Of a DNA stretch of 64,000 nucleotides, positions 9,390 through 43,705 are shown piece after piece (the stretch's first letter is position 1; each line of letters begins with the position of its first letter). Below the pieces are notes generated by a model, which was not told the DNA's origin, searched no databases, and saw only the letters and a program-made list of their open reading frames with translations. The position numbers and the translations under genes are program-made. The stretch is from Emiliania huxleyi CCMP1516. Taxonomy: Eukaryota. The DNA lies in contig NW_005201613.1 of the NCBI RefSeq assembly GCF_000372725.1, forward strand, positions 216,290-280,289. Direction: 5' to 3'.

Positions 9390-11690
9390 TCAAGCAATGC
9401 TACCGTCAGTACTACACAGCGGGGCGACCGCCCTCTCCAGGTAGGCTTGCCGCTCATTGGCAATCAAGCCGTACCATTCGTAGAATGGAACGCTGATCAC
9501 CCTCCAGCCAGCTGCCGTGAGGAGGCGCCGCTTGAGCAGCGTTGGCCCATTGGGTCTGCGCACGCCCCGGCCGTCGGGCAGCAAGAAGTGAGACGGGCCG
9601 TCCACCTCAACGCCGACGCGTGTCGAGGGCAGCGCCAGGTCGAGAGAGTAGCCGGTGCGCGGCTCGAGATGCTCCTCCTCGAAGCCGTGCTGGACGGCGG
9701 CGAGGGCAGCCGCGACGGAGCGCTGTAAGCGCGAGATCGTAACTTCAGTGCCTTGCATGGCGTCGCAGCAGAGCTTGCGCTGGGACGCGGAGAGGAGGTG
9801 CTGCTGCCCGTCTGCTCCTCGCTCAAGGGAGAGCCAGAGCTGCCACTGGTGCAGCTGACGGCGGTCCTCCTCGCTCCATATCGAGGGATCCCGCGCGAGC
9901 GAGTCGCTGATCACGCGCGAGCAGTCGGCAAGCAGCGCCTGGTGATAACAGTCTGCCGTCGCATACGCCCAGACCGTGTTGGACAGCTCCTGCGGCTTGA
10001 AGCCAGCCAGCCCGCTGCGCACCGCCGCCTCCGCCACCGCCGCGTACAGCGCGTCCGCTGCCACGCCCGCCGTCGCATACGCCCACACCGTGTTGGCCAG
10101 GGCCTGAGGGCTGAAGCCAGTCAGCCCGCCGCGCACCACTGCCTCCGCCACCGCCGCGTACAGCGCGTCCGCTGCCACGCCCGCCGTCGCATACGCCCAG
10201 ACCGTGTTGGACAGCGCCTGTGGAGTGAAGCCAGCCAGCCCGCCGCGCACCGCCGCCTCCACCACCGCCGCGTACAGCGCGTCCGCTGCCACGCCCGCCG
10301 TCGCATACGCCCACACCGTGTTGGCAAGGTTCTGAGCGTTGAAGCCAGTCAGCCCGCCACGCACCGCCGCCTCCGCCACGGCCGCGTACAGCGCGTCCGC
10401 AGCCACGCCCGCCGTCGCATACGCCCATACCGTGTTGGACAGGGCCTGAGGGTTGAAGCCAGTCAGCCCGCCGCGCACCACTGCCTCCGCCACCGCCGCG
10501 TACAGCGCGTCCGCTGCCATGCCCGCCGTCGCATACGCCCACACCGCGTTGGACAGCGCCTGTGGAGTGAAGCCATCCAGCCCGCCGCGAACCGACGCCT
10601 CCGCCACCGCCGCGTACAGCGCGTCCGCAGCCACGCCCGCCGTCGCATACGCCCACACCGTGTTGGCCAGATCCTGAGGGTTGAAGCCAGCCAGCCCGCT
10701 CCGCACCGCCGCCTCCGCCACCGCCGCGTACAGCGCGTCCGCAGCCACGCCCGCCGTCGCATACGCCCACACCGTGTTGGCCAGCTCCTGCGGCTTGAAG
10801 CCAGCCAGCCCGCTCCGCACCGCCGCCTCCGCCACCGCAGCGTACAGCGCGTCCGCAGCCATGCCCGCCGTCGCATACGCCCACACCGTGTTGGCCAGGT
10901 TCTGAGGGGTGAAGCCAGCCAGCCTGCTGCGCACCGCCGCCTCAGCCACCGCCGCGAACAGCGAGCGCACCACCCTTGCTTGCAGGCCGCACTTTGCAAC
11001 GCCGTGAGACACGTTAGCCAGCTCGCGTGCTCGGCACGAAGAAACCAGGTCGAGCGTGCGCTGCACCAGCTGCTCAAGCCGCTCCTCGTGCCGCCGCTCG
11101 ATGCGCTGCTTGCCCAGTTTGTTCCACAGGTTCGCAGCGTGGATGTGGTTCAAGCTCGTGCTGTGGGCAGCAAAGAGCGCGAGCAGTGCGTCAGCGCTGC
11201 CAGCCTGGGAGATGGATGCGGTCAATTTGAGAGGGTCGACCTGGCCACTACCGTCAGCACAGCGGCTAGACGAGGGTCGCTCATTGCGCATTAGTGCGTC
11301 GTGGCTCTGCCGCTCGTCATTGAGGATCGGCAGACCCATCCGGCGATTGCTGTGCTGATGAGGCTGCCACTGGTGCTGGTACTGGTCGCGCCGGCCATGG
11401 TCGAGCCTGGGATCGTGGTGCCAGTCATCATGCCGATTGCAATAGTCGCGCTCGCCTCTGCACCGACAATCGTCGTAGCCGCGCCGATCGTCCTGCCGCC
11501 CGTCACTATGCGGCCATTGTTCGCCTCGCCAATGCTTGTTGTGCCATCGCTCAGCGGGCCAACGCTCATCGCGCCATCTCAGCTCGCCCCGCCATTGCTG
11601 CTCGCCGCGTCTGCACACGTCGCGCCGTTGCTCTTCACGCCAGCGACGCTGCGGCTCGTCACGCCAGCGGAGCTCCTCGCTTCGGAACAT
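9390..11690 (-). CDS. Octatricopeptide (OPR)-type helical repeat protein with a C-terminal RAP domain (FASTK/OPR-RAP-like), intronless
   Basis: Nine 38-aa repeats FxPQxL[AS]NTVWAYATAG[MV]AADALYAAVAEAAVRxGLxG, then GYSLDLAL...VEVDGPSHF...TLLKRRLL..AGWRVISVPFYEW (RAP signature). First ATG at 11690; ORF open to 11762. Confidence 0.88.
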   Translation of the reverse strand: MFRSEELRWRDEPQRRWREEQRRDVCRRGEQQWRGELRWRDERWPAERWHNKHWRGEQWPHSDGRQDDRRGYDDCRCRGERDYCNRHDDWHHDPRLDHGRRDQYQHQWQPHQHSNRRMGLPILNDERQSHDALMRNERPSSSRCADGSGQVDPLKLTASISQAGSADALLALFAAHSTSLNHIHAANLWNKLGKQRIERRHEERLEQLVQRTLDLVSSCRARELANVSHGVAKCGLQARVVRSLFAAVAEAAVRSRLAGFTPQNLANTVWAYATAGMAADALYAAVAEAAVRSGLAGFKPQELANTVWAYATAGVAADALYAAVAEAAVRSGLAGFNPQDLANTVWAYATAGVAADALYAAVAEASVRGGLDGFTPQALSNAVWAYATAGMAADALYAAVAEAVVRGGLTGFNPQALSNTVWAYATAGVAADALYAAVAEAAVRGGLTGFNAQNLANTVWAYATAGVAADALYAAVVEAAVRGGLAGFTPQALSNTVWAYATAGVAADALYAAVAEAVVRGGLTGFSPQALANTVWAYATAGVAADALYAAVAEAAVRSGLAGFKPQELSNTVWAYATADCYHQALLADCSRVISDSLARDPSIWSEEDRRQLHQWQLWLSLERGADGQQHLLSASQRKLCCDAMQGTEVTISRLQRSVAAALAAVQHGFEEEHLEPRTGYSLDLALPSTRVGVEVDGPSHFLLPDGRGVRRPNGPTLLKRRLLTAAGWRVISVPFYEWYGLIANERQAYLERAVAPLCSTDGSIA
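9957..10925 (-). repeat. 114-bp coding tandem repeat (~8.5 units)
   Basis: TTGAAGCCAG recurs at 10681 and 10795 (114-bp period); units nearly identical at DNA level. Confidence 0.95.
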
Positions 11691-11726
11691 GCGCGGGAGG
11701 TCTTGTCCGAACGTAAAAGGAAAGGA

Positions 11727-11812
11727 AGAATTTAAACAAGACAACTCTCTCTCACAGCACACAGGCTCGACACAGGTGCGAACTGGCGCGTGCTAGTACT
11801 ATCACCGGCACA
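11727..11812 (+). repeat. Dispersed ~80-bp repeat; second copy at 34550-34637, related copies at 22783-22912 and 24058-24146
   Basis: ACAACTCTCTCTCACAGCA(C/G)ACAGGCTCGACACAGGTGCG(A/G)ACTGGC...GTGCTAG(T/C)ACTATCAC shared between 11741 and 34566. Confidence 0.8.
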
Positions 11813-31550: not shown

Positions 31551-32229
31551 CATGGACTTCCTCGACGACCTCCCTCAAGACATGCTGGCGGTACTCGCTC
31601 AAGGCCTCGACGTGGTGTCGCTGGTGCGATTCTCCGCGCTGAACCACGCCTCCCGAGCCGCCTCCTCCACAGGGCTCCGCGCGGCCAGGGACGCCTTCGA
31701 GGCGCTCGTCGGTCTCTTCGGCGGCGACGCGGCGGCGCGCACGGCGGCGCAGAATTTGACAAGGGTCGCGCCGCACCTCTTCATCGTCGCTCGGCCTGCG
31801 GCCGTCTTCGCGGCTCGCCTCTCCGGTCTCGCCGACATCTTTGGCAGCGACGCGTCGGCGCGCACGGCCGCTGTGGCATACCCGAGGCTGCTCGCCGTCG
31901 CCTCGCCGACGGCCGTCTTCGGTGAGCGCCTCTCCGCGTTGGAAGACGTCCTTGGCGGCGACGCGGCGCGCTCGGCCGTCGGCTCGTGCCCGCGGTTGCT
32001 CACCATCCCATACGCGGTCTTTGCGGGCCGCCTCGCCGCGCTCGCCGACATCTTCGGCGACGACGCGGCCGCGCGCACGGCCGTGGCCAACTGCCCGAGG
32101 CTGCTCACCATCGACTCGCATGCGGCCGTCTTTGCTGCGCTGGCAGATAGCATCGGCGGCAACATCGCCTCTGCACGCAAGATCGTCCATCTTTCCCCAA
32201 GCGTGCTCCTGCGGGCCTACTTGCGATGA
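31551..32229 (+). CDS. F-box protein with ~4 mTERF-like helical repeats
   Basis: MDFLDDLPQDMLAVLAQGLDVVSLVRFSALNHASR (F-box), followed by repeats of the form DIFG.DA.ARTAV...PRLL....AVF..RL.AL. Confidence 0.75.
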
Positions 32230-34679: not shown

Positions 34680-37600
34680 AGTGCCACGCCGCAATGCACC
34701 TACTCTCGTCTCCCTCTCGAGCTCCTGGCCACCTTCGCCGCCGCACGCTCTCCGCCGGCTGCCACTGCCGCACCTTCGACTCGCGCGCGGACGGGCACGT
34801 GCGTGGCGAGGCGTGCTGCGCCGCGACGCTGCGCGTCAGCAGCTTTGCCACGCACGACACACTGCGACTGGTCGGCTGCTGCGTGCGGCCGGACGGCAAG
34901 AGGGCGAGCCTGACGGCGCTCAACGGCCAAACGCAGCGGGCGCTGCTGTGGGCCGCGCCGACGCCGCGATGCTGAGCGACGCGGCTCACTGCACGGGCAT
35001 GGCGCTGGGCGACCCGATTTGAGGCGCGCTCTCTCGCCTCTCGCTCCACACGGGGCGGCAGGACGACGAGGCGCTCGCTGGTCGGAGTAGGCGCATCCGC
35101 TAGCGCAAGGGGTGGACGCGGCGGCGCCGACCGGGCTCGTTCGCTAGTGAAAATCTCCGGCAGCCGGCGCACTGCGCAGCTTGGTGGCGGACCACATCGG
35201 GCTATGTCGTCTTCCCTGGCGACGGCTGCCTCGAGGGCGACCGACGCGGCGACCGACGCGGCGACCGACGCGGCGAGCGGCTTGCTGCGGCGCGTCTTCT
35301 TCCTGCTGCCCCTCTTGCTCGACGGCGATGTGGCACAGTTGCGCGTGGTGTGCGAGCTCAACGCGGCGGAGGAGCGCTTTGAGGTGCGAAGCGAGCTCAC
35401 CGAGGAAGGGGCAAGCACCGCCCATTGCGGCGGCTCGACGGATGCGGCGCCGCCGGGCGACGAGCGGCGGCGCCCGCAGCCGGCCGCGGTGCGCGGGAGC
35501 TGCGGGGCGGCGAGCGCCGCGGACCTGTACTCCGCGTTCCGGGGGATGGGCCTCGAGTACGGCCCTGCGTACCGCACGCTCGCGGGCATGTGGGCGTCGC
35601 CAGCTGCTGCGGTGGGGCAGCGCGCCGCACGTGGCCACTTGTGCCCGGTGGCGGAGCGGCAATCGGCACGACTCGCCTCGCTCTAGTGAGTCAGAGCCGA
35701 CGCGGCGGAGGCGGCGCGCACTTGTCGGGCTTCGAGACGCGAGCCCTCAAGGCCGGCTGCGCCGAAGAGGCACCTGCGATGGCGACACTGAACGTGACGG
35801 CGTGGACAGCGCGCGCGCTGTCTGCCGACGCCGGCCCCGAGGCGGCGGCGGCATCATCGCTGGTCCTCTCCGGAGCGGTGTCGAGCGCCGCGTCCGGCGC
35901 GGGCGCCACTCGTGCGACGGCGGCGGCGGCTGGCGGGCCTCGTTCTGTCGCGTTTGCCGCGGGGGTCGGCGGCGCCCGCGCCGAGCGCGATTCGCTCGCC
36001 GTGCTGGCGGCCGCCTTTGACATCGTGCGGGCCCACACCGCCAAGGTCGCGCTGCCGGTGTGGCTGCTGACGAGCCGCGCGCTCGGCGCCCGGCCATCGG
36101 GCGGGTCTGGCGCGTCCGCGCATGCGGGCATGATGGGTGGGTTTGGCCCGCCAAGTGCGGTCCGAGGCGCCGACGTGCCGTTTGCCAGTCATTGACCTCG
36201 ACGCCGCTGCGGCAGTGGCGGGCTCGGCGGCGGCCGCCGCGAAGCTTGGGCTCGGGTACTCGGGCTTGCCTGAGCCCGAGGTCGCTTTCGACGCCGGCCG
36301 GCCGCGCGTGCCGCGGCTCAACCAGCGGGCCTGTTCGGATGCACTTCGACGCGCGCGGCGCGGTGTCGAACCTCCGGCTCGTGCCTCAGGCCGAGGAGAG
36401 CTCCCCGCCCGCGGACGGCGAGGTCGAGTTGCGCGTGCGAGCGGTCGGTCTCAACTTCCGCGACGTGCTCAACGTCCTCGGCGTGTACCCCGGCGACCCC
36501 GGTCCTCCCGGCAGCGACTGCGCTGCAGACGTGGCTCGCTGCGGCGGCGGCGCGCCGCACCTGCGCGTGGGCGACGCTGTGCTCGGCCATGGCCTGGCGG
36601 CGCTGGCATCGTTTCGCGGAGCGACTCGCGGCTGATGGCGGCGATCGACGACTCGCTGACGGTCGAGCAGGCGTGCACCCTGCCGACGACGTGGTGCACG
36701 GTTCACATGTCGCTCCTCGCGTCGCGGCCTCGCGCGGGCCACCACGCGCTGCTGCAAGCGGGCGCCGGTGGCGTTGGCCTCGCAGCGGGCGAGTACACAC
36801 ATTGGGTCGGCACGCGCGCAAGCGTGACGGTCGGCCGGCCGTACAAGCATTGGTATTTGCATGGCACGGGTCTGCGCGGCGAGACGCTCAGCTCGCGGGA
36901 CGGCGGCGCGTTCCTCGCCGGCGCGGCGGCGCTCGTCCGCGCGTCGCGGCTGCGCTTCGTAACAGCTAGTCCGCCGACTTCATCGCTGGCTCGTTTGCGC
37001 CGCTGGGCGAGGGCGGCTGCTTGTGCGAGATCGGCAAGCGCGCGGTGTGGAGTGCGGAGCGGCTGCGGAGCGCGTCGCTTGCGCGCTACGTGGCGATCGC
37101 GCTCGACAGCACGATCGAGCAGACGCCGGTGTGGATGCGGGGCACACTCCAGCGGTTGTCTGCGCACGCGGCGGCGCGCGTGCTGCACGGGCTGCCACTG
37201 CAGAGCTTCGGGCTGGAGCGCAGCCTGCTCTCCGCGTTCCGCAGCCTGCAGGCCGGCACAAACACCGGCAAGGTGGTCATCCTTATCCCCGCCACCGCCC
37301 CCGCGCCGCCGCGCGACACGCATCTGCTCTCGGGCGGCACCGGCGGGCTCGACCTGCTGACAGGCCAGTGGCTGGCGGCGGGCGGGGCTTCCACGGCTGT
37401 GCTTGCGGCGTGCGGCGGCGCGGTGTCGGAGGCGGACGGCCCGCGGCTGCGGAAGGCGCGGCCGCAATGCTCCGTGTGCGTGGCGCGCGCCGATGCGGCG
37501 GAGCTGGCCGACATCCGGCGGCTGTGGGTTTAGCGGGGCGCGTTGCGGCGAGGCGGGTCGGCTCGCGGTCGTGTGGCACGTGGCCGGCGTCCTATCCGAC

Positions 37601-38310
37601 GGGTTGCTGCGCGCCCAGACGGCGAGCACGCTCCGCCGGGTGTACGCTCCGAAGGTACACGGCGCCTGGGGCTTGCAGCTTGCGTGCGCCGCGGCGCCGC
37701 TCGATGCGTGCGTCCGCTTCTCGTCCATCGCCGTCGCTGATCGGCGGCGGCGGGCAGTCCAACTATGGCGCGGCGAACGGTTGCCTCGATTCGCTCGGCG
37801 TGTGTCGGCGGCAGGGCGGCCAGGCGGCGTCGAGCGTGCAGTGCGGGCCGTGGGCGGAGTGGGCATGGCCGCGAGCAGCTCGGTCAACGCGCGGATCAAG
37901 GCGGCGTCGGGCATGGGCCTGATCGGGCTGGAGCAGGGCGCGACGGCGTTCCGTGGAGCGCTGCTGCCGGGCGTGCCGGCCGTGATGAGTTTGGCCGTCC
38001 TTTCGTGGGGCAAGTTCCTCGGTCTGATGCCGACGGTGCCGCCGCTGCTAGAAGGGCACGCCTCCCGCAAGGCGGCGACCGGCTGGGCATCTGAGAGCCG
38101 CGTCGTGACGCTCGAGATGATCATGAAATCGCTCGAGTCGACCACCGGCACGGGCGTGGATGCGGACGCGCCGGTGAAGGAGGCCGGCCTCGACTCGCTT
38201 GGAGCGGTGCGGGCTCGGCAAGCCGCCGCGCAGCAGGCGTCGGGGCAGACGCTGCCGTCGACGCTCATCTTTGACTACCCGACGGCGCGGCAGCTCGCGG
38301 CGTACTTCGA
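34680..38310 (+). pseudogene. Decayed type I polyketide synthase module (partial KS-DH-ER-KR-ACP)
   Basis: KS: CRTFDSRADGHVRGEAC, DGKRASLTALNG, HCTGMALGDPI*. DH: LYSAFRGMGLEYGPAYR. ER: VRAVGLNFRDVLNVLGVYPGDPG, AGAGGVGLAA. KR: SGGTGGL, HVAGVLSDG, PKVHGAW, GQSNYGAAN. ACP: AGLDSLGA...LIFDYPT. Motifs lie in several frames with in-frame stops. Confidence 0.85.
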
Positions 38311-38793
38311 GAGCTCCTCCATCCACTTCTGCCGGCGGCAGCCAAGCTGCGGAAGTGGCCGCCGCCGGGCGAGACGCGCTGGCAAGGTGTGCGGCGCGCG
38401 CGTCTTCTTGTGTAGTGTCTACGTGTATGGCTCCGTGTGTCCGACGAGGCGCCAAACATGTGTATTATTGTGGTGGTGGGTCCGCACGTGTTAGGCAAGG
38501 AGGAAAGGGTTGGTTGGGAACTTTTGTCCGCGGTGGCGCACAAGAAAGGGCAAAACAAACGAATCCACGTCATTCTTTCTGCCTTTTTCTTTTGCATGGC
38601 GCGACCGGAAGGCGATGCCGGTGGGAACCACACGGCACCGAGCCGCAGCCTGACCCGACGACGTCGCCCCACGGCTGCTGCAAGCCACGTCGGCGCACGG
38701 CTGCTGCCAGCCGCGCTCCAGTAGGAGCCGCCGCCGCCGTCGCCGCCGCCGCCGCCGCCGCCGCCGCTCCTCGTCGCGGAGCTCCGTAGAGAC

Positions 38794-41700
38794 ATGGGAG
38801 GTGGCCAAGGTTGCGAGTACATGAAGGCGGCGGCCGTCCCTTATACGATCGAACCACGCGATGTCCTGATCGTCGACTGCTCGACGGTCTCGCATGACCT
38901 GCTGATCGTGGGGCCCTGGGCGCTCACACGCTGCCTTGCTTGGCACGCCGGCGATCGGGCCCCGCTCATCAACGCCTTTGTCGACGAGATGCGTAGTCTG
39001 GCCAGGCACGGCGCCGCCGTCTTCCTGCTCTTCGAGGGCGTGGACACCAGCGGAGATGCGGCTCCGCAGGAGCCGACTCGAGAGCGGCTCCGCCGCGATG
39101 CGGCGCAGCGCGAGGCGATCCGTGTGGTCGCGAGCTACGGTGGCGACCACGCCGCCTTGCGCCGCGATGCCGAGGCCACGACAGACGGCGCGAACCGAGT
39201 CCGGGCCGCGGTGCTCGGCTCGGTGCACGGCAGCGAGTTGAAACAGCTCCTGCTGGCCGAGCTGCTCAAGGAGAAGCAGCAGCCCACCTCCGGCCTCGAC
39301 AACATCGTGCCTCTCGTCTCGCCCCGCGGAACCGAGAACGACCACATGGCGGTGGCCCTCCACCGGCTGCTCCTCGCGGGCGGCGTGCCGAGCATGCTCG
39401 TCTTCAACGACGGCGACATGCTCGTGCACGGCGTTCCCGTGCTCATCGCCGAGAGAGTGCGCCGCTCCAGCAGACCCCGACGCGCCGCCGCCTAGTAATA
39501 GTGTGACGGCCTCCCCCCCCCCCCCTCCCCCCCCCCCCGCCGCCTAGTAATAGGGCGACGCGTGGATGGTCAGGGGCCAGCTGCAGCTCTTCGACCCCAA
39601 CGCCCACGACGTCATCGCCCAGCAGCTGCAGGGTAGCCCTCGCCGCCAGGCGCTGTTCGCGCTGGCCCGCGAGCACGGCTCAGGCATCTGGGGCGACGCT
39701 GCCGCAATCGTGGGGAGGACGGACGCATCGCAGGATGCCGGCTATCGCGGCCTCGGCACGTTCGAGCGGCTGCTGGAGGTGCTCGGCGAGGTGGCCACGC
39801 GCGACCCCGTCGCCTTTGCCTCCCTCGACGCACCGTACCGCGTCGACGTGATTGCCTCCATGATTGCGTCGGGTGGCGTCAGCGGCGGGGTGAACCGCGG
39901 CGGGCAGAGCGATGACGAAGCCACCGCAGATGTCGCGCGGGCGCTCGGCGGGCTGTACCTCCAGCGCGCAGGCGGGGACAAGACGGTCAAAGAGCTGGGC
40001 TTCTCGCCCTCGGCCTCGCCCGGCGTCTCTGCTGCCTCGCCCGACGCAAGCGGAGATGGGACGGCGGGCGGGGGCGAGGGCAGCGGGACGGCGACTGGCA
40101 GCAACGATGATCGGGCCGACTGCGGCGGCGGGGACGGCAGCCGCGGAGGCGGTGACGAGGGGCGCGGCGCGGCTAGCGCGAGTGGCGGCGGAGGGCGGCC
40201 GAGGCTCGTCGAGAGCGGAGGCTTTGGCAGCGGCGGTCGAGCAGGAGGAGTCGGCGAGGGCATCGATGCAGAGGCAGCGTCGACGGGCGCCGAGGCTGCG
40301 ATGGCCGTGGCGCAGCACGGGGCGGTCGTGGCGCGCCGCAAAGCGGAGGACGACGGCCGGTTCCGATCTCTCGAGGGCGTCCGGGACTTCGTGTATTCCG
40401 AAGCCTTTGGCTGCGACGACGAGGATACGCGCAAGGCGTTCATGGAGTGGGCGGAGTTCGAGTTTGGGTTTGAGGAGCTGGCCAAGCGCTTTGCGCAGCA
40501 CGGCGCAATCATCCCGTGGATCGGGCCAGACGCGAGGCAAGCCGGGGTCGTCATGCTGTTGCACTATGCCGGCGAGAGCCACACCCACCACTGGCCGTTC
40601 CTCGATGGCGTCGCCACGTCCGTCTCCTTCGATGTGCTCGTCCGCCGCGTGCCAGAGCTTCTTGGCCACGCCTCGGCCGATGCCATGCTCGCCTCGGTCA
40701 TCGTCGACTCGACGCTCGTGGTACTTCCGCGGCCGCTGCGCACGGACGGCGGCGGGTGCGTCGACGACTATGCGGAGCAGTGCCTGCTCGAGACCATGAG
40801 CCATGACGAACTCGAGACGCACCGCGACAAGCGCACGCGGTTCCTCAGCTGCCTGCTCAAGTGGCTGGCGCAGGACGCCGCACCGCGGTCGCCGTCGAGC
40901 CTATCGTCGCCGAGCCCGCCGTCGCCGAGCCAGCCGCCGCCGAGCCAGCCGCCGCCGCCCCGCCCTCCCTCGAGCCAGCCTCCGCCGAGCCGCACGCCGC
41001 CGAGCCGGGACAGCCGAGGCGGATCGCCGCCGCGCCGGCGGCGGAAGCTACATCCGACGTCACCCCATCAGTCGCCGCGGCAGCCCTTGGGAGAGCTCCA
41101 GCAGCGCCTTCCGGGGAGCGGCAGCGGCGGCAGCAGCACCGCGGATGCCGCTTCGGCTGGCGGCAGCAGCGGCGGCGCCGCGGGCGGCGGCTGTCAGGCG
41201 CAGAGTGGGTGGGCGGTGGAGCTGCCGCGCCTCCAGGGCGGCAGCGTCGTGCGCGATTTGATCGTCGACACGCCGGCGTTGCTGCGGCTCCTGCCCTCGC
41301 CGACGGCAGGCGTGGGCCTCGACGAAGCGGTGGGTGCGAGGGCCGTCCTCGTCGTGTGCGGCCGGGCGGCGGCCAAGTGCGTCACGCCGCAGCTGGTGGC
41401 TGATGCGGCTGAGGCGGGCGCGTGCTGCATCTCCACGCACCACCCCGAGTACGTGAGCGCAAAATACTTCCCGTGGCACGCTCGCGAGGAGAGCTGCCGC
41501 ACGCTGCTCGTCATGGGCCTGCCCAGCCTCCGCGCCGCCTCTGCGTCGCTCGCCGACGCCAAGGCGAAGGTGGCGGGTGCGATCGCCGACGGGTGGCGGG
41601 TGAGGCTGCACGACTACCTGGCTCACAGGCGGAGCGTGCTGGGCACTGCGACAGCGCCGTCGCCGTCCTCGCGGGGCACGGCGTGGGCCTCGAGCATCGT

Positions 41701-43705
41701 CGAAGACCGGATCGAGGTGTCTCTGCTCGACGGCATCGGGCGCAGGCACATGCTGACGTCGGTGCTGCCCGCCCTCGCCCCCTCGCACGCCCAGCTGGTG
41801 CCGTGGTTGGAGAGCGCGATGGACTCTGACGGCTCGACCGGAGTGGCGGTGCTCGAAGAGTTGATGCTGGCCGTCACCGCGCACGACCTCGAGGCGGCCG
41901 TGCCGGGGGGCGGGTGGAGGGACATCGTCGCCGCTGACGACTTTGACGCACCCAGATGGTTCCCTGAGGAGCTCGAGCGGCTGGTCGTCCCCGTCGACAC
42001 CATCGCGGGCTGGCACGCCGAGCACCGAGAACCGCAGGTGAGGGCGATGGTCGAGCTGGCCGGCGCCGATGCGCCAGGCCTCCGTGCGCTGCTGCAGGCG
42101 GGCAAGCGGCTGCGCCAGCCGGCTCGGCAGCTGTGCGAGTGGCGGGACGACCTGGCGGCGGCACTCGGCGGCGGCCCCGAGGCGAAGGCGGCGACGCGCG
42201 AGGCGGTGCGGCAGGCGCCGAGCTTCCTCACGGCGCCCCGGCCCGTCGCCGTGATCAAGGCCGTCGTCCAGCTCCTCGGCGGCGGCGAGGAGGCGATGGC
42301 GGCGACGCGCGAGGCGGTGCGGCAGGCGCCGACCTTCCTCACGGCGCCCCGGCCCGTCGCCGTGATCGAGGCCGTCGTCGAGCTCCTCGGCGGCGGCGAG
42401 GAGGCGAAGGCGGCGACGCGCGAGGCGGTGCGGCAGGCGCCGACCTTCCTCACGGCGCCCCGGCCCGTCGCCGTGATCGAGGCCGTCGTCCAGTGCCTCG
42501 GCGGCGACGAGGAGGCGATGGCGGCGACGCGCGAGGCGGTGCGGCAGGCGCCGACCTTCCTCAGGGCGCCCCAGCCCGCCGCCCTGATCAAGGCCGTCGT
42601 CGAGCTCCTCGGCGGCGACGAGGAGGCGAAGGCGGCGACGCGCGTGGCGGTGCGGCAGGCGCCGACCTTCCTCATGGCGCCCCAGCCCGTCGCCGTGATC
42701 GAGGCCGTCGTCCAGTGCCTCGGCGGCGGCGAGGAGGCGAAGGCGGCGACGCGCGTGGCGGTGCGGCAGGCGGCGAGCTTCCTCAAGGCGCCCCAGCCCG
42801 TCGCCGCCATCGAGGCCGTCGTCCAGTGCCTCGGCGGCGGCGAGGAGGCGAAGGCCGCGACGCGCGTGGCGGTGCGGCAGGCGCCGACCTTCCTCAGGGC
42901 GCCCCGGCCCGTCGCCGTGATCGAGGCCGTCGTCGAGCTCCTCGGCGGCGACGAGGAGGCGAAGGCGGCGACGCGCGTGGCGGTGCGGCAGGCGCCGAGC
43001 TTCCTCCGGGCGGCCCAGCCCGTCGCCGTGATCGAGGCCGTCGTCCAGTGCCTCGGCGGCGGCCCCGAGGCAAAGGCGGCGACGCGCGTGGCGGTCCGGC
43101 AGGCGCCGACCTTCCTCATGGCGCCCCAGCCCGTCGCCGTGATCGAGGCCGTCGTCCAGTGCCTCGGCGGCGGCGAGGAGGCGAAGGCGGCGACGCGCGT
43201 GGCGGTGCGGCAGGCGGCGAGCTTCCTCAAGGCGCCCCAGCCCGTCGCCGCCATCGAGGCCGTCGTCCAGTGCCTCGGCGGCGGCGAGGAGGCGAAGGCC
43301 GCGACGCGCGTGGCGGTGCGGCAGGCGCCGAGCTTCCTCCGGGCGGCCCAGCCTGTCGCCGTGATCGAGGCCGTCGTCCAGTGCCTCGGCGGCGGCGAGG
43401 AGGCGAAGGCGGCGACGCGCGTGGCGGTGCGGCAGGCGCCGAGCTTCCTCATGGCGGCTCGCCCTAAAGAAGTCATCGCTAAAATGGTCGCTGTGGCGGA
43501 ACAGCGATTGCCTCGTGATGAGGCCTTGCGCCTCGTGCGCTCCATGGTGAGCGAGACTCCGAGCCTGCTTGACGGCCGCTCGAATCACGTTGAGAAAGTC
43601 CGCCGCCGTTCCGAGGGGGAGGCGGGGCCCCGCAAGCGGAAGCGTGCCGATAACGCAAGCATCGCCGCCGCCTTTGCTGGCGCTTTCGCCGGCCAATCAC
43701 TGTGA
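38794..43705 (+). CDS. Predicted ~1600-aa fusion: FEN1/XPG-like 5' nuclease + H3TH, putative UDG-superfamily domain, 37-aa mTERF-like repeat array, NLS
   Basis: Exon 1 (38794-39456): MG..G, LIVDCS, FLLFEG, TENDH, FNDGDMLVHG. A phase-0 GT-AG intron at 39457-39553 joins it in frame to ORF 39566-43705, which has IVGRTD...GYRGLG (H3TH), VLVVCGRAA...STHHPEY (UDG-like), 12 repeats and PRKRKR. Confidence 0.75.
42163..43462 (+). repeat. 111-bp (37-aa) coding tandem repeat, 11 full units + 1 partial
   Basis: GTGATC recurs at 42251 and 42362; unit LGGGEEAKAATRVAVRQAP[ST]FLxAP[RQ]PVAVIEAVVQC. Confidence 0.97.

Follow-up and report, generated by a model that had tools for sequence, protein, structure and literature searches.

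A uniform array of twelve 37-residue repeats with one hypervariable residue per unit in Emiliania huxleyi, possibly of mTERF type and joined to a candidate 5' nuclease

The repeat array and its hypervariable codon

The window analysed here comprises 64,000 nucleotides from Emiliania huxleyi CCMP1516 (assembly GCF_000372725.1, contig NW_005201613.1, forward-strand positions 216,290 to 280,289), and all coordinates refer to it. It contains an open reading frame (ORF) which encodes, close to its C-terminus, a tandem array of nearly identical repeats with a single hypervariable residue in each unit. From an earlier inspection of the letters, here called the original prediction, the variable residues had been proposed to form a recognition code. 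The features concerned are:

39566..43705, forward strand: repeat-bearing ORF (P0001), 1379 aa, with the array near the C-terminus
42158..43489, forward strand: twelve repeats of 37 aa (111 bp), predicted to form three helices each; the last unit is degenerate after codon 26
42230..43453, forward strand, at 42230 + 111 x k (k = 0..11): hypervariable codon 25 (Pro+4; T, R, M or K), one per unit
42653..42887, forward strand: exact 235-bp tract, copy 1, from mid unit 5 to mid unit 7
43097..43331, forward strand: exact 235-bp tract, copy 2, from mid unit 9 to mid unit 11

Tandem Repeats Finder places the array at 42164-43456 (period 111, 11.6 copies, 92% matches), and the spacing of the twelve units is exactly 37 aa. 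The twelve core motifs of the original prediction, from PSFLT in the first unit to PSFLM in the last, were all exact on re-reading. The core proline is kept in 10 of 12 units and the arginine three residues ahead of it (Pro-3) is invariant throughout. Since the array was found in all four sequencing runs mapped onto one unit, at depths which, summed over the units, clearly exceed that of the unique part (run X2: peak 386 versus about 50), it is real and no assembly artefact. For the four-state base this mapping listed no alternative letters. Runs matching the locus derive from a single organism as well as from metagenomes of marine origin. A public protein, P0021, contains the C-terminal part of the repeat ORF (100% identity over the matched 36 aa).

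Codon 25 is ACG in three units, AGG in two, CGG in two, ATG in three and AAG in two. In a comparison of per-column variability, as had been suggested with the original prediction, it is the entropy outlier: 1.96 bits at the amino-acid level, against 1.10 bits for the next column, 32 (V/L/A), and 1.0 for the S/T column. Among the 111 nucleotide columns 24 vary (degenerate ends masked), 23 with two states, none with three and one with four, the latter being the middle base of codon 25. The claim of one four-state residue behind FL was borne out, whereas the statement that all other positions have at most two states failed at column 32. The P/A-S/T pair, regarded earlier as a further part of the code, has to be dropped from it: both columns have two states only and vary no more than several others do. 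A single residue stands out, not a di-residue.

The recurrence of the pair PTFLM-ASFLK, formerly read as a sign of unequal recombination, is due to one exact 235-bp duplicate at a four-unit shift, which is longer than the duplicates in 200 of 200 shuffles of unit order. Furthermore, all four gametes occur in 49 of the 153 pairs of columns that are informative. Because of this duplicate and these pairs, recombination or conversion among the units is well supported.

The same processes are central to a neutral explanation, in which homogenisation of the repeat would be recent, position 25 would tolerate change better than any other exposed site and its states would have been spread by conversion or duplication. 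Two of the twelve units are copies, and every state at codon 25 amounts to a single change at one base (ANG codons), so that the states are nothing more than A, C, G and T at one position of the codon. Neutral evolution with tract conversion was simulated forward in six settings, with rates from uniform to strongly varying, and gave a four-state column in 4% (uniform rate), 11%, 34%, 78%, 41% and 88% of the samples; depending on rate variation, such a column may thus be rare or common under neutrality. However, the settings which make it common also yield 5-10 three-state columns, and the array has none. The combination of a four-state column with no three-state column, a statistic picked after the data were seen, occurred in a fraction of 0.0001-0.009 of the samples in six of six neutral models. 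With regard to variation beyond neutral expectation, which the original prediction required, the column spectrum was seen in less than 1% of the samples in all six models, and the four-state column alone in up to 88%. The suggested dN/dS check did not set codon 25 apart: the ratio of nonsynonymous to synonymous polymorphism (pN/pS) among units is 1.77 with and 1.76 without this codon, and there is no purifying signal over the array. This agrees with neutrality, but the ratio is uninformative and not usable as a selection test because 98% of third codon positions are G or C. General decay of CpG does not explain the variation either, as TpG or CpA variants are seen at 3 of 21 consensus CpGs (the codon-25 base is unscored, its consensus being non-CpG). 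Finally, position 25 coincides with the variable patch of bacterial arrays described below. We consider the neutral explanation rather unlikely.

Predicted fold and relatives of the repeat

A single-sequence AlphaFold2 model of the array (predicted local distance difference test, pLDDT, 77) shows three helices per unit: a long helix, the proline, a helix of five residues and another long helix. In this model the proline caps the central helix and the variable residue is predicted to end the short helix that follows it. Such an arrangement recalls the mTERF family. In human MTERF1 the three helices of a motif form a triangle, with conserved prolines capping the central helices and placed along the major groove (PMC4705650). 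In the C-segment of MTERF1, W383 replaces the proline and R387 bonds a guanine (PMC4705650); the offset between the two is four residues, the same as that of position 25 from the proline of the array.

Kinship to mTERF proteins is indirect and suggested through relatives of the array only, one of which lies in the same window:

31555..32229, forward strand: paralogue-like neighbour gene, F-box-like at its start (as judged by eye), with about five degenerate repeats of 34-37 aa related to those of the array

The product of this gene, of which P0040 is an orthologue, is 32% identical to the array (BLASTP, pairwise E 5e-13). Profile comparison of the array with the window paralogue plus P0040 scored 33.0 (shuffle maximum 18.6), and with P0029 plus P0049, which had themselves been chosen as search matches, 37.5; neither score was reached in any of 30 shuffles. 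The paralogue scored 53.8 against P0029 plus P0049, so that a chain above all shuffles leads from the array over the paralogue to this pair. P0029 is the only one of these relatives that passes the Pfam mTERF cut-off (27.9 versus 23.1 bits), and its Pro+4 residue is R or T in six of eight units. Family PF02536 is also found on three of ten atlas rows (0.79-0.80), which serves as a lead only. A PDB sequence search with P0029 gave in its third row, at E 1.5, the mitoribosomal mS93, which we take to be mTERF-like; at E <= 0.001 no PDB entry was matched in any of the sequence searches.

Alternatively, the 37-aa repeats could derive from TPRs and form a protein-binding sensor comparable to those in immune receptors of fungi and brown algae; a protein ligand (for example a viral one) would then switch on the attached nuclease. 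Of 55 sequence matches scanned, 42 are TPR proteins (alignment over 59 columns, probability 96), and the spacing G-A-x-A-P in helix B fits the TPR signature. The bacterial STAND-type proteins P0011 and P0013, with uniform 34-aa repeats, match at 22.5, above 40 of 40 shuffles. However, the likeness to TPRs, though real, is partial and covers one helix: the period of 37 and the predicted third helix differ from the two-helix, 34-aa TPR, and glutamate or lysine stands where the TPR signature needs a small residue. Pfam TPR_2 is reached at E 0.81 only, on a four-unit piece, and the window paralogue and P0029/P0049 are devoid of TPR likeness (scores 6-11). Near-identical (>85%), reshuffled repeats with few hypervariable and positively selected positions are known from fungal NLRs (PMC4986451) and Ectocarpus NB-ARC-TPR proteins (PMC3341825); in contrast to these, Pfam and other domain scans found no NTPase domain in the gene, and the array has a predicted third helix and mTERF-like relatives. 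Taken together, a TPR-type sensor appears improbable. Of P0011 and P0013 themselves, one carries an nSTAND NTPase, and in both the variation is clustered in three residues after a short helix; their repeats are possibly variable sensor repeats.

Uniform mTERF-like arrays are already in print as bacterial pTERFs, that is, prokaryotic mTERF-like tandem-repeat DNA binders, which were proposed in 2024 to be reprogrammable (PMC11417379). The motif bound differs between two pTERFs in which the repeats are arranged differently (PMC11417379, section 53), and the portions of text available from this paper assign a code to no position. For comparison we fetched bacterial genes with Pfam mTERF matches, present in 1 of 399 scored genomes of a class and in 38 of 401 of one order (30 loci returned). 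From 14 ORFs a set of seven homogeneous 35-aa arrays at five loci was obtained (mean unit identity >0.6, cap-like first units dropped, n = 31 units); these arrays are kin, and only units caught by the anchor pattern are counted. Their top five variable columns are Pro+1, -1, +4, -2 and +5. In a 32-aa array, L148 (n = 22 units; first, last and one short unit dropped), the top columns are +5 with six states and +1 with four. The top column of the algal array, Pro+4, falls inside the bacterial variable patch Pro-2..Pro+5, for which the chance is 5/37 = 0.14. An invariant basic residue at Pro-3 is common to all, R in the algal array and K in both bacterial types. Thus, algal and bacterial arrays have in common uniform tandem repeats, predicted here to be of three helices, and a concentration of variation in the same patch. 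The algal array differs from the pTERFs in its 37-aa units, in one dominant variable site, in its probable fusion to a 5' nuclease and in its eukaryotic host, which is evident from an OPR-RAP gene, a ubiquitin-conjugating enzyme and microsatellites in the window. Neither is profile similarity detectable: the array scored 5.5 and 6.2 against the bacterial mTERF-type profiles, which is shuffle level, although the same test scores the two bacterial types against each other at 10.6 only.

L148 itself (G723:C16:27910-31398) is an 883-aa frame with 25 near-identical 32-aa Pfam-mTERF repeats, which vary mainly at two positions, one with N/S/T/D and the other with L/Q/R/K/Y/C. Judged from this pattern it is a candidate for a cleaner code than most pTERFs offer.

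A nuclease-like ORF upstream of the array

Immediately upstream of the repeat-bearing ORF lies a second, shorter one. The features in this part are:

38794..39495, forward strand: 233-aa ORF (P0002), resembling the N-terminal half of XPG/FEN1/poxvirus-G5-like 5' nucleases, probably a first exon
39457..39553, forward strand: candidate GT..AG intron of 97 bp, the removal of which would join both ORFs in frame to 1604 aa
39713..39757, forward strand: H3TH-like motif, residues 50-64 of the repeat ORF (by eye)
41027..41047, forward strand: basic cluster at residue 488, nuclear-signal-like (by eye)
43631..43645, forward strand: basic cluster RKRKR at residue 1356, nuclear-localisation-like (by eye)

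P0002 seems to have a PIN-type core with the conserved acidic residues of the XPG/FEN1 group (acidic motifs at residues 27-28, 80-81, 180-183 and 205-208). In the atlas it matches an XPG_I/XPG_N cluster at 0.92 (commonest phylum Haptophyta; recognition 2701) and a Pox_G5 cluster at 0.91. Against a profile of Pol I 5' nucleases built from 25 genomes, its E-x-D and D-x-D motifs align in register and score 21.7, above all of 25 shuffles (maximum 17.9). The structural model is poor (pLDDT 37); the top four Foldseek rows are FEN1, at non-significant E. A Pfam match was not obtained, P0002 lying below Pfam detection, and in this it differs from known members of the XPG/FEN1/poxvirus G5 superfamily. 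Enzymes of the FEN1/XPG type are structure-specific nucleases.

P0002 alone is devoid of an H3TH part. The motif at 39713-39757 presumably resembles the H3TH that a FEN1-type nuclease should carry in its second half; on its own it was not above shuffles against the Pol I profile. The candidate intron is one of 37 GT candidates, and all acidic motifs are kept after joining. Among the 15 RNA joints listed none falls at this intron, the stretch being partly skipped as repeat. Metatranscriptome contigs cover pieces of both ORFs (at least six in X11 and at least three in X12; DNA carry-over is possible), and none of these pieces crosses the ORF junction. Judged from the sequence, nuclease ORF and array probably belong to one protein. 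Within the candidate intron, at 39487-39553, a 15-base stretch with three in-frame stop codons occurs twice, on either side of a poly-C run.

Between nuclease half and array about 730 aa are free of domain assignments and partly of low complexity, another difference from the XPG/FEN1/poxvirus G5 superfamily. A split uracil-DNA-glycosylase-like domain (residues 255-440 and 547-700, by eye) was considered here and rejected, as the alignment was confined to the His-Pro motif and scored no better than shuffles. The pattern G-x-x-A ... T-H-H-P at 41204-41665 (forward strand), noticed by eye, presumably resembles the C-terminal half of proteins with this fold; it was not above shuffles against a bacterial uracil-DNA-glycosylase profile. 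Ahead of the nuclease-like start no leader was seen by eye. From the two basic clusters, likewise seen by eye, we infer a nuclear location.

A possible recognition role and its alternatives

The explanation we prefer, tentatively and at somewhat less than an even chance, is that of an mTERF-type nucleic-acid-binding solenoid in which the Pro+4 residue tunes sequence preference and which serves as C-terminal targeting module of a nuclear 5' nuclease of the FEN1/XPG type. By analogy to MTERF1 and the pTERFs, Pro+4 is likely to face the groove. The solenoid would wrap DNA such that the side bearing the prolines lies in the groove, the backbone would be held by the invariant Pro-3 arginine, and the residue at Pro+4 would tune local contacts, R or K to bases or phosphate and T or M as smaller or non-polar residues. 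Unequal recombination or conversion would keep the scaffold uniform and reshuffle the contact residue, with the consequence that alleles would differ in their preferred sites; the attached FEN1-type domain would cut structured DNA near these.

Several observations speak against this explanation. PF02536 was not matched directly, neither at E <= 1 by the whole protein nor at E <= 10 by pieces of it. The whole-array single-sequence model best matches generic solenoids and PUF, with a root-mean-square deviation of about 10 A, and PUF domains head the fold search; PUF repeats are 36-aa units of three helices that carry a base-reading triad. An MTERF chain is not among the best 50 rows of either wide fold search or among the Foldseek rows, an absence which cannot exclude the family. 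By sequence, TPRs outscore mTERF. The Pro-on-Pro register between algal and bacterial arrays is based on membership in the Pfam family and on an alignment that is not significant, and pN/pS among units gives no selection signal specific to codon 25.

The idea that the variable residues specify bases was thus retained in part. A recognition role of Pro+4 is supported indirectly, by its place in the pTERF-variable patch and by the R387 offset, since it rests on the mTERF-like fold, itself assigned indirectly; the P/A-S/T pair finds no such support. In its strict form such a code would be TALE- or PUF-like, with one repeat for one base and T, R, M and K for the four bases of DNA or, if PUF-like, of single-stranded RNA. 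The presence of exactly four states on a uniform scaffold would suit it, as would the PUF domains on top of the fold matches and the different motifs bound by the two pTERFs with different repeat arrangements (PMC11417379, section 53). However, MTERF1 covers 22 bp with eight motifs and has five listed direct-readout arginines (PMC4705650). By this geometry of about 2.7 bp per repeat, twelve repeats would span about 30 bp; therefore the residue would be a partial, context-dependent reader and no one-base cipher. We regard a strict code as very unlikely.

With respect to human MTERF1 and the mTERF family, the array has in common the three helices per motif and the capping proline, both as predicted by the model, and a Pro+4 position equivalent to that of a base-reading arginine (R387 versus W383; PMC4705650). 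Classical mTERF motifs are degenerate, of about 31-33 aa, and almost all of these proteins are organelle-targeted (PMC4705650, PMC4005652), whereas the array units are 92% identical in DNA, no leader is apparent ahead of the nuclease-like start and, by eye, basic nuclear-type signals seem to be present. With TALEs the array shares the uniform scaffold, the few variable residues and the shuffling, and the putative layout of nuclease and array recalls engineered TALENs. The TALE repeat, however, is a 34-aa unit with a di-residue, in contrast to a 37-aa unit with three predicted helices and one variable residue after the proline; Pfam scans of the repeat ORF and its pieces gave no TAL family match, and the nuclease here would be of the FEN1/XPG type. 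A bolder version, which we consider quite unlikely, is that of a natural, nuclear, eukaryotic TALEN-like enzyme: a FEN1/XPG nuclease steered by a recombining mTERF-like array, with one residue per repeat setting DNA sequence preference in a modular and predictable manner. Its targets may have been shifted to the DNA of viruses or mobile elements. If true, this would be the cleanest scaffold yet for an mTERF recognition code.

Close homologues were not found in protein word searches, in metagenome contigs (by protein and by DNA pattern), in viral contigs or in plasmids; one DNA-pattern match in the metagenome contigs was a chance match to an unrelated bacterial contig. In the literature covered, to which subscription journals do not belong, neither a eukaryotic near-identical mTERF array nor an mTERF-nuclease fusion was found. 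New here would be a eukaryotic mTERF-like array of such uniformity and the candidate nuclease fusion, with fold, fusion and binding all inferred. For the question of a modular mTERF code the array resembles a natural experiment, in that four states occur at a single, predicted groove-facing position of a uniform 37-aa scaffold. If the fusion is real, a structure-specific 5' nuclease would have acquired a shuffling repeat reader, in the nucleus and not in an organelle.

With regard to the surroundings, the window is GC-rich eukaryotic DNA. Directly 5' of the nuclease-like ORF, at 36060-38494 (forward strand), fragments of polyketide synthases (ADH_N, KR, PP-binding) are found in several frames and at high summed depth. 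Inside the repeat-bearing ORF, at 40507-40597, runs X2 and X9 have in common about 20 substitutions and a compensated 1-base insertion/deletion relative to the window, which reflect either a divergent allele or an assembly error. The sequence just 3' of the last repeat also varies between runs.

Membership of the array in the HPR/OPR group was rejected: its profile scored 10.4 with one aligned column against the window's own OPR array, and three helices are predicted, while HPR is a 37/38-aa bihelical repeat related to OPR (PMC12691811). The OPR-RAP gene at 9390-11762 (reverse strand) carries nine near-identical 38-aa repeats. A comparison of eight full units shows four states each at positions 3 (T/K/N/S) and 6 (N/E/D/A), and hence a second uniform array with code-like columns is present in this genome.
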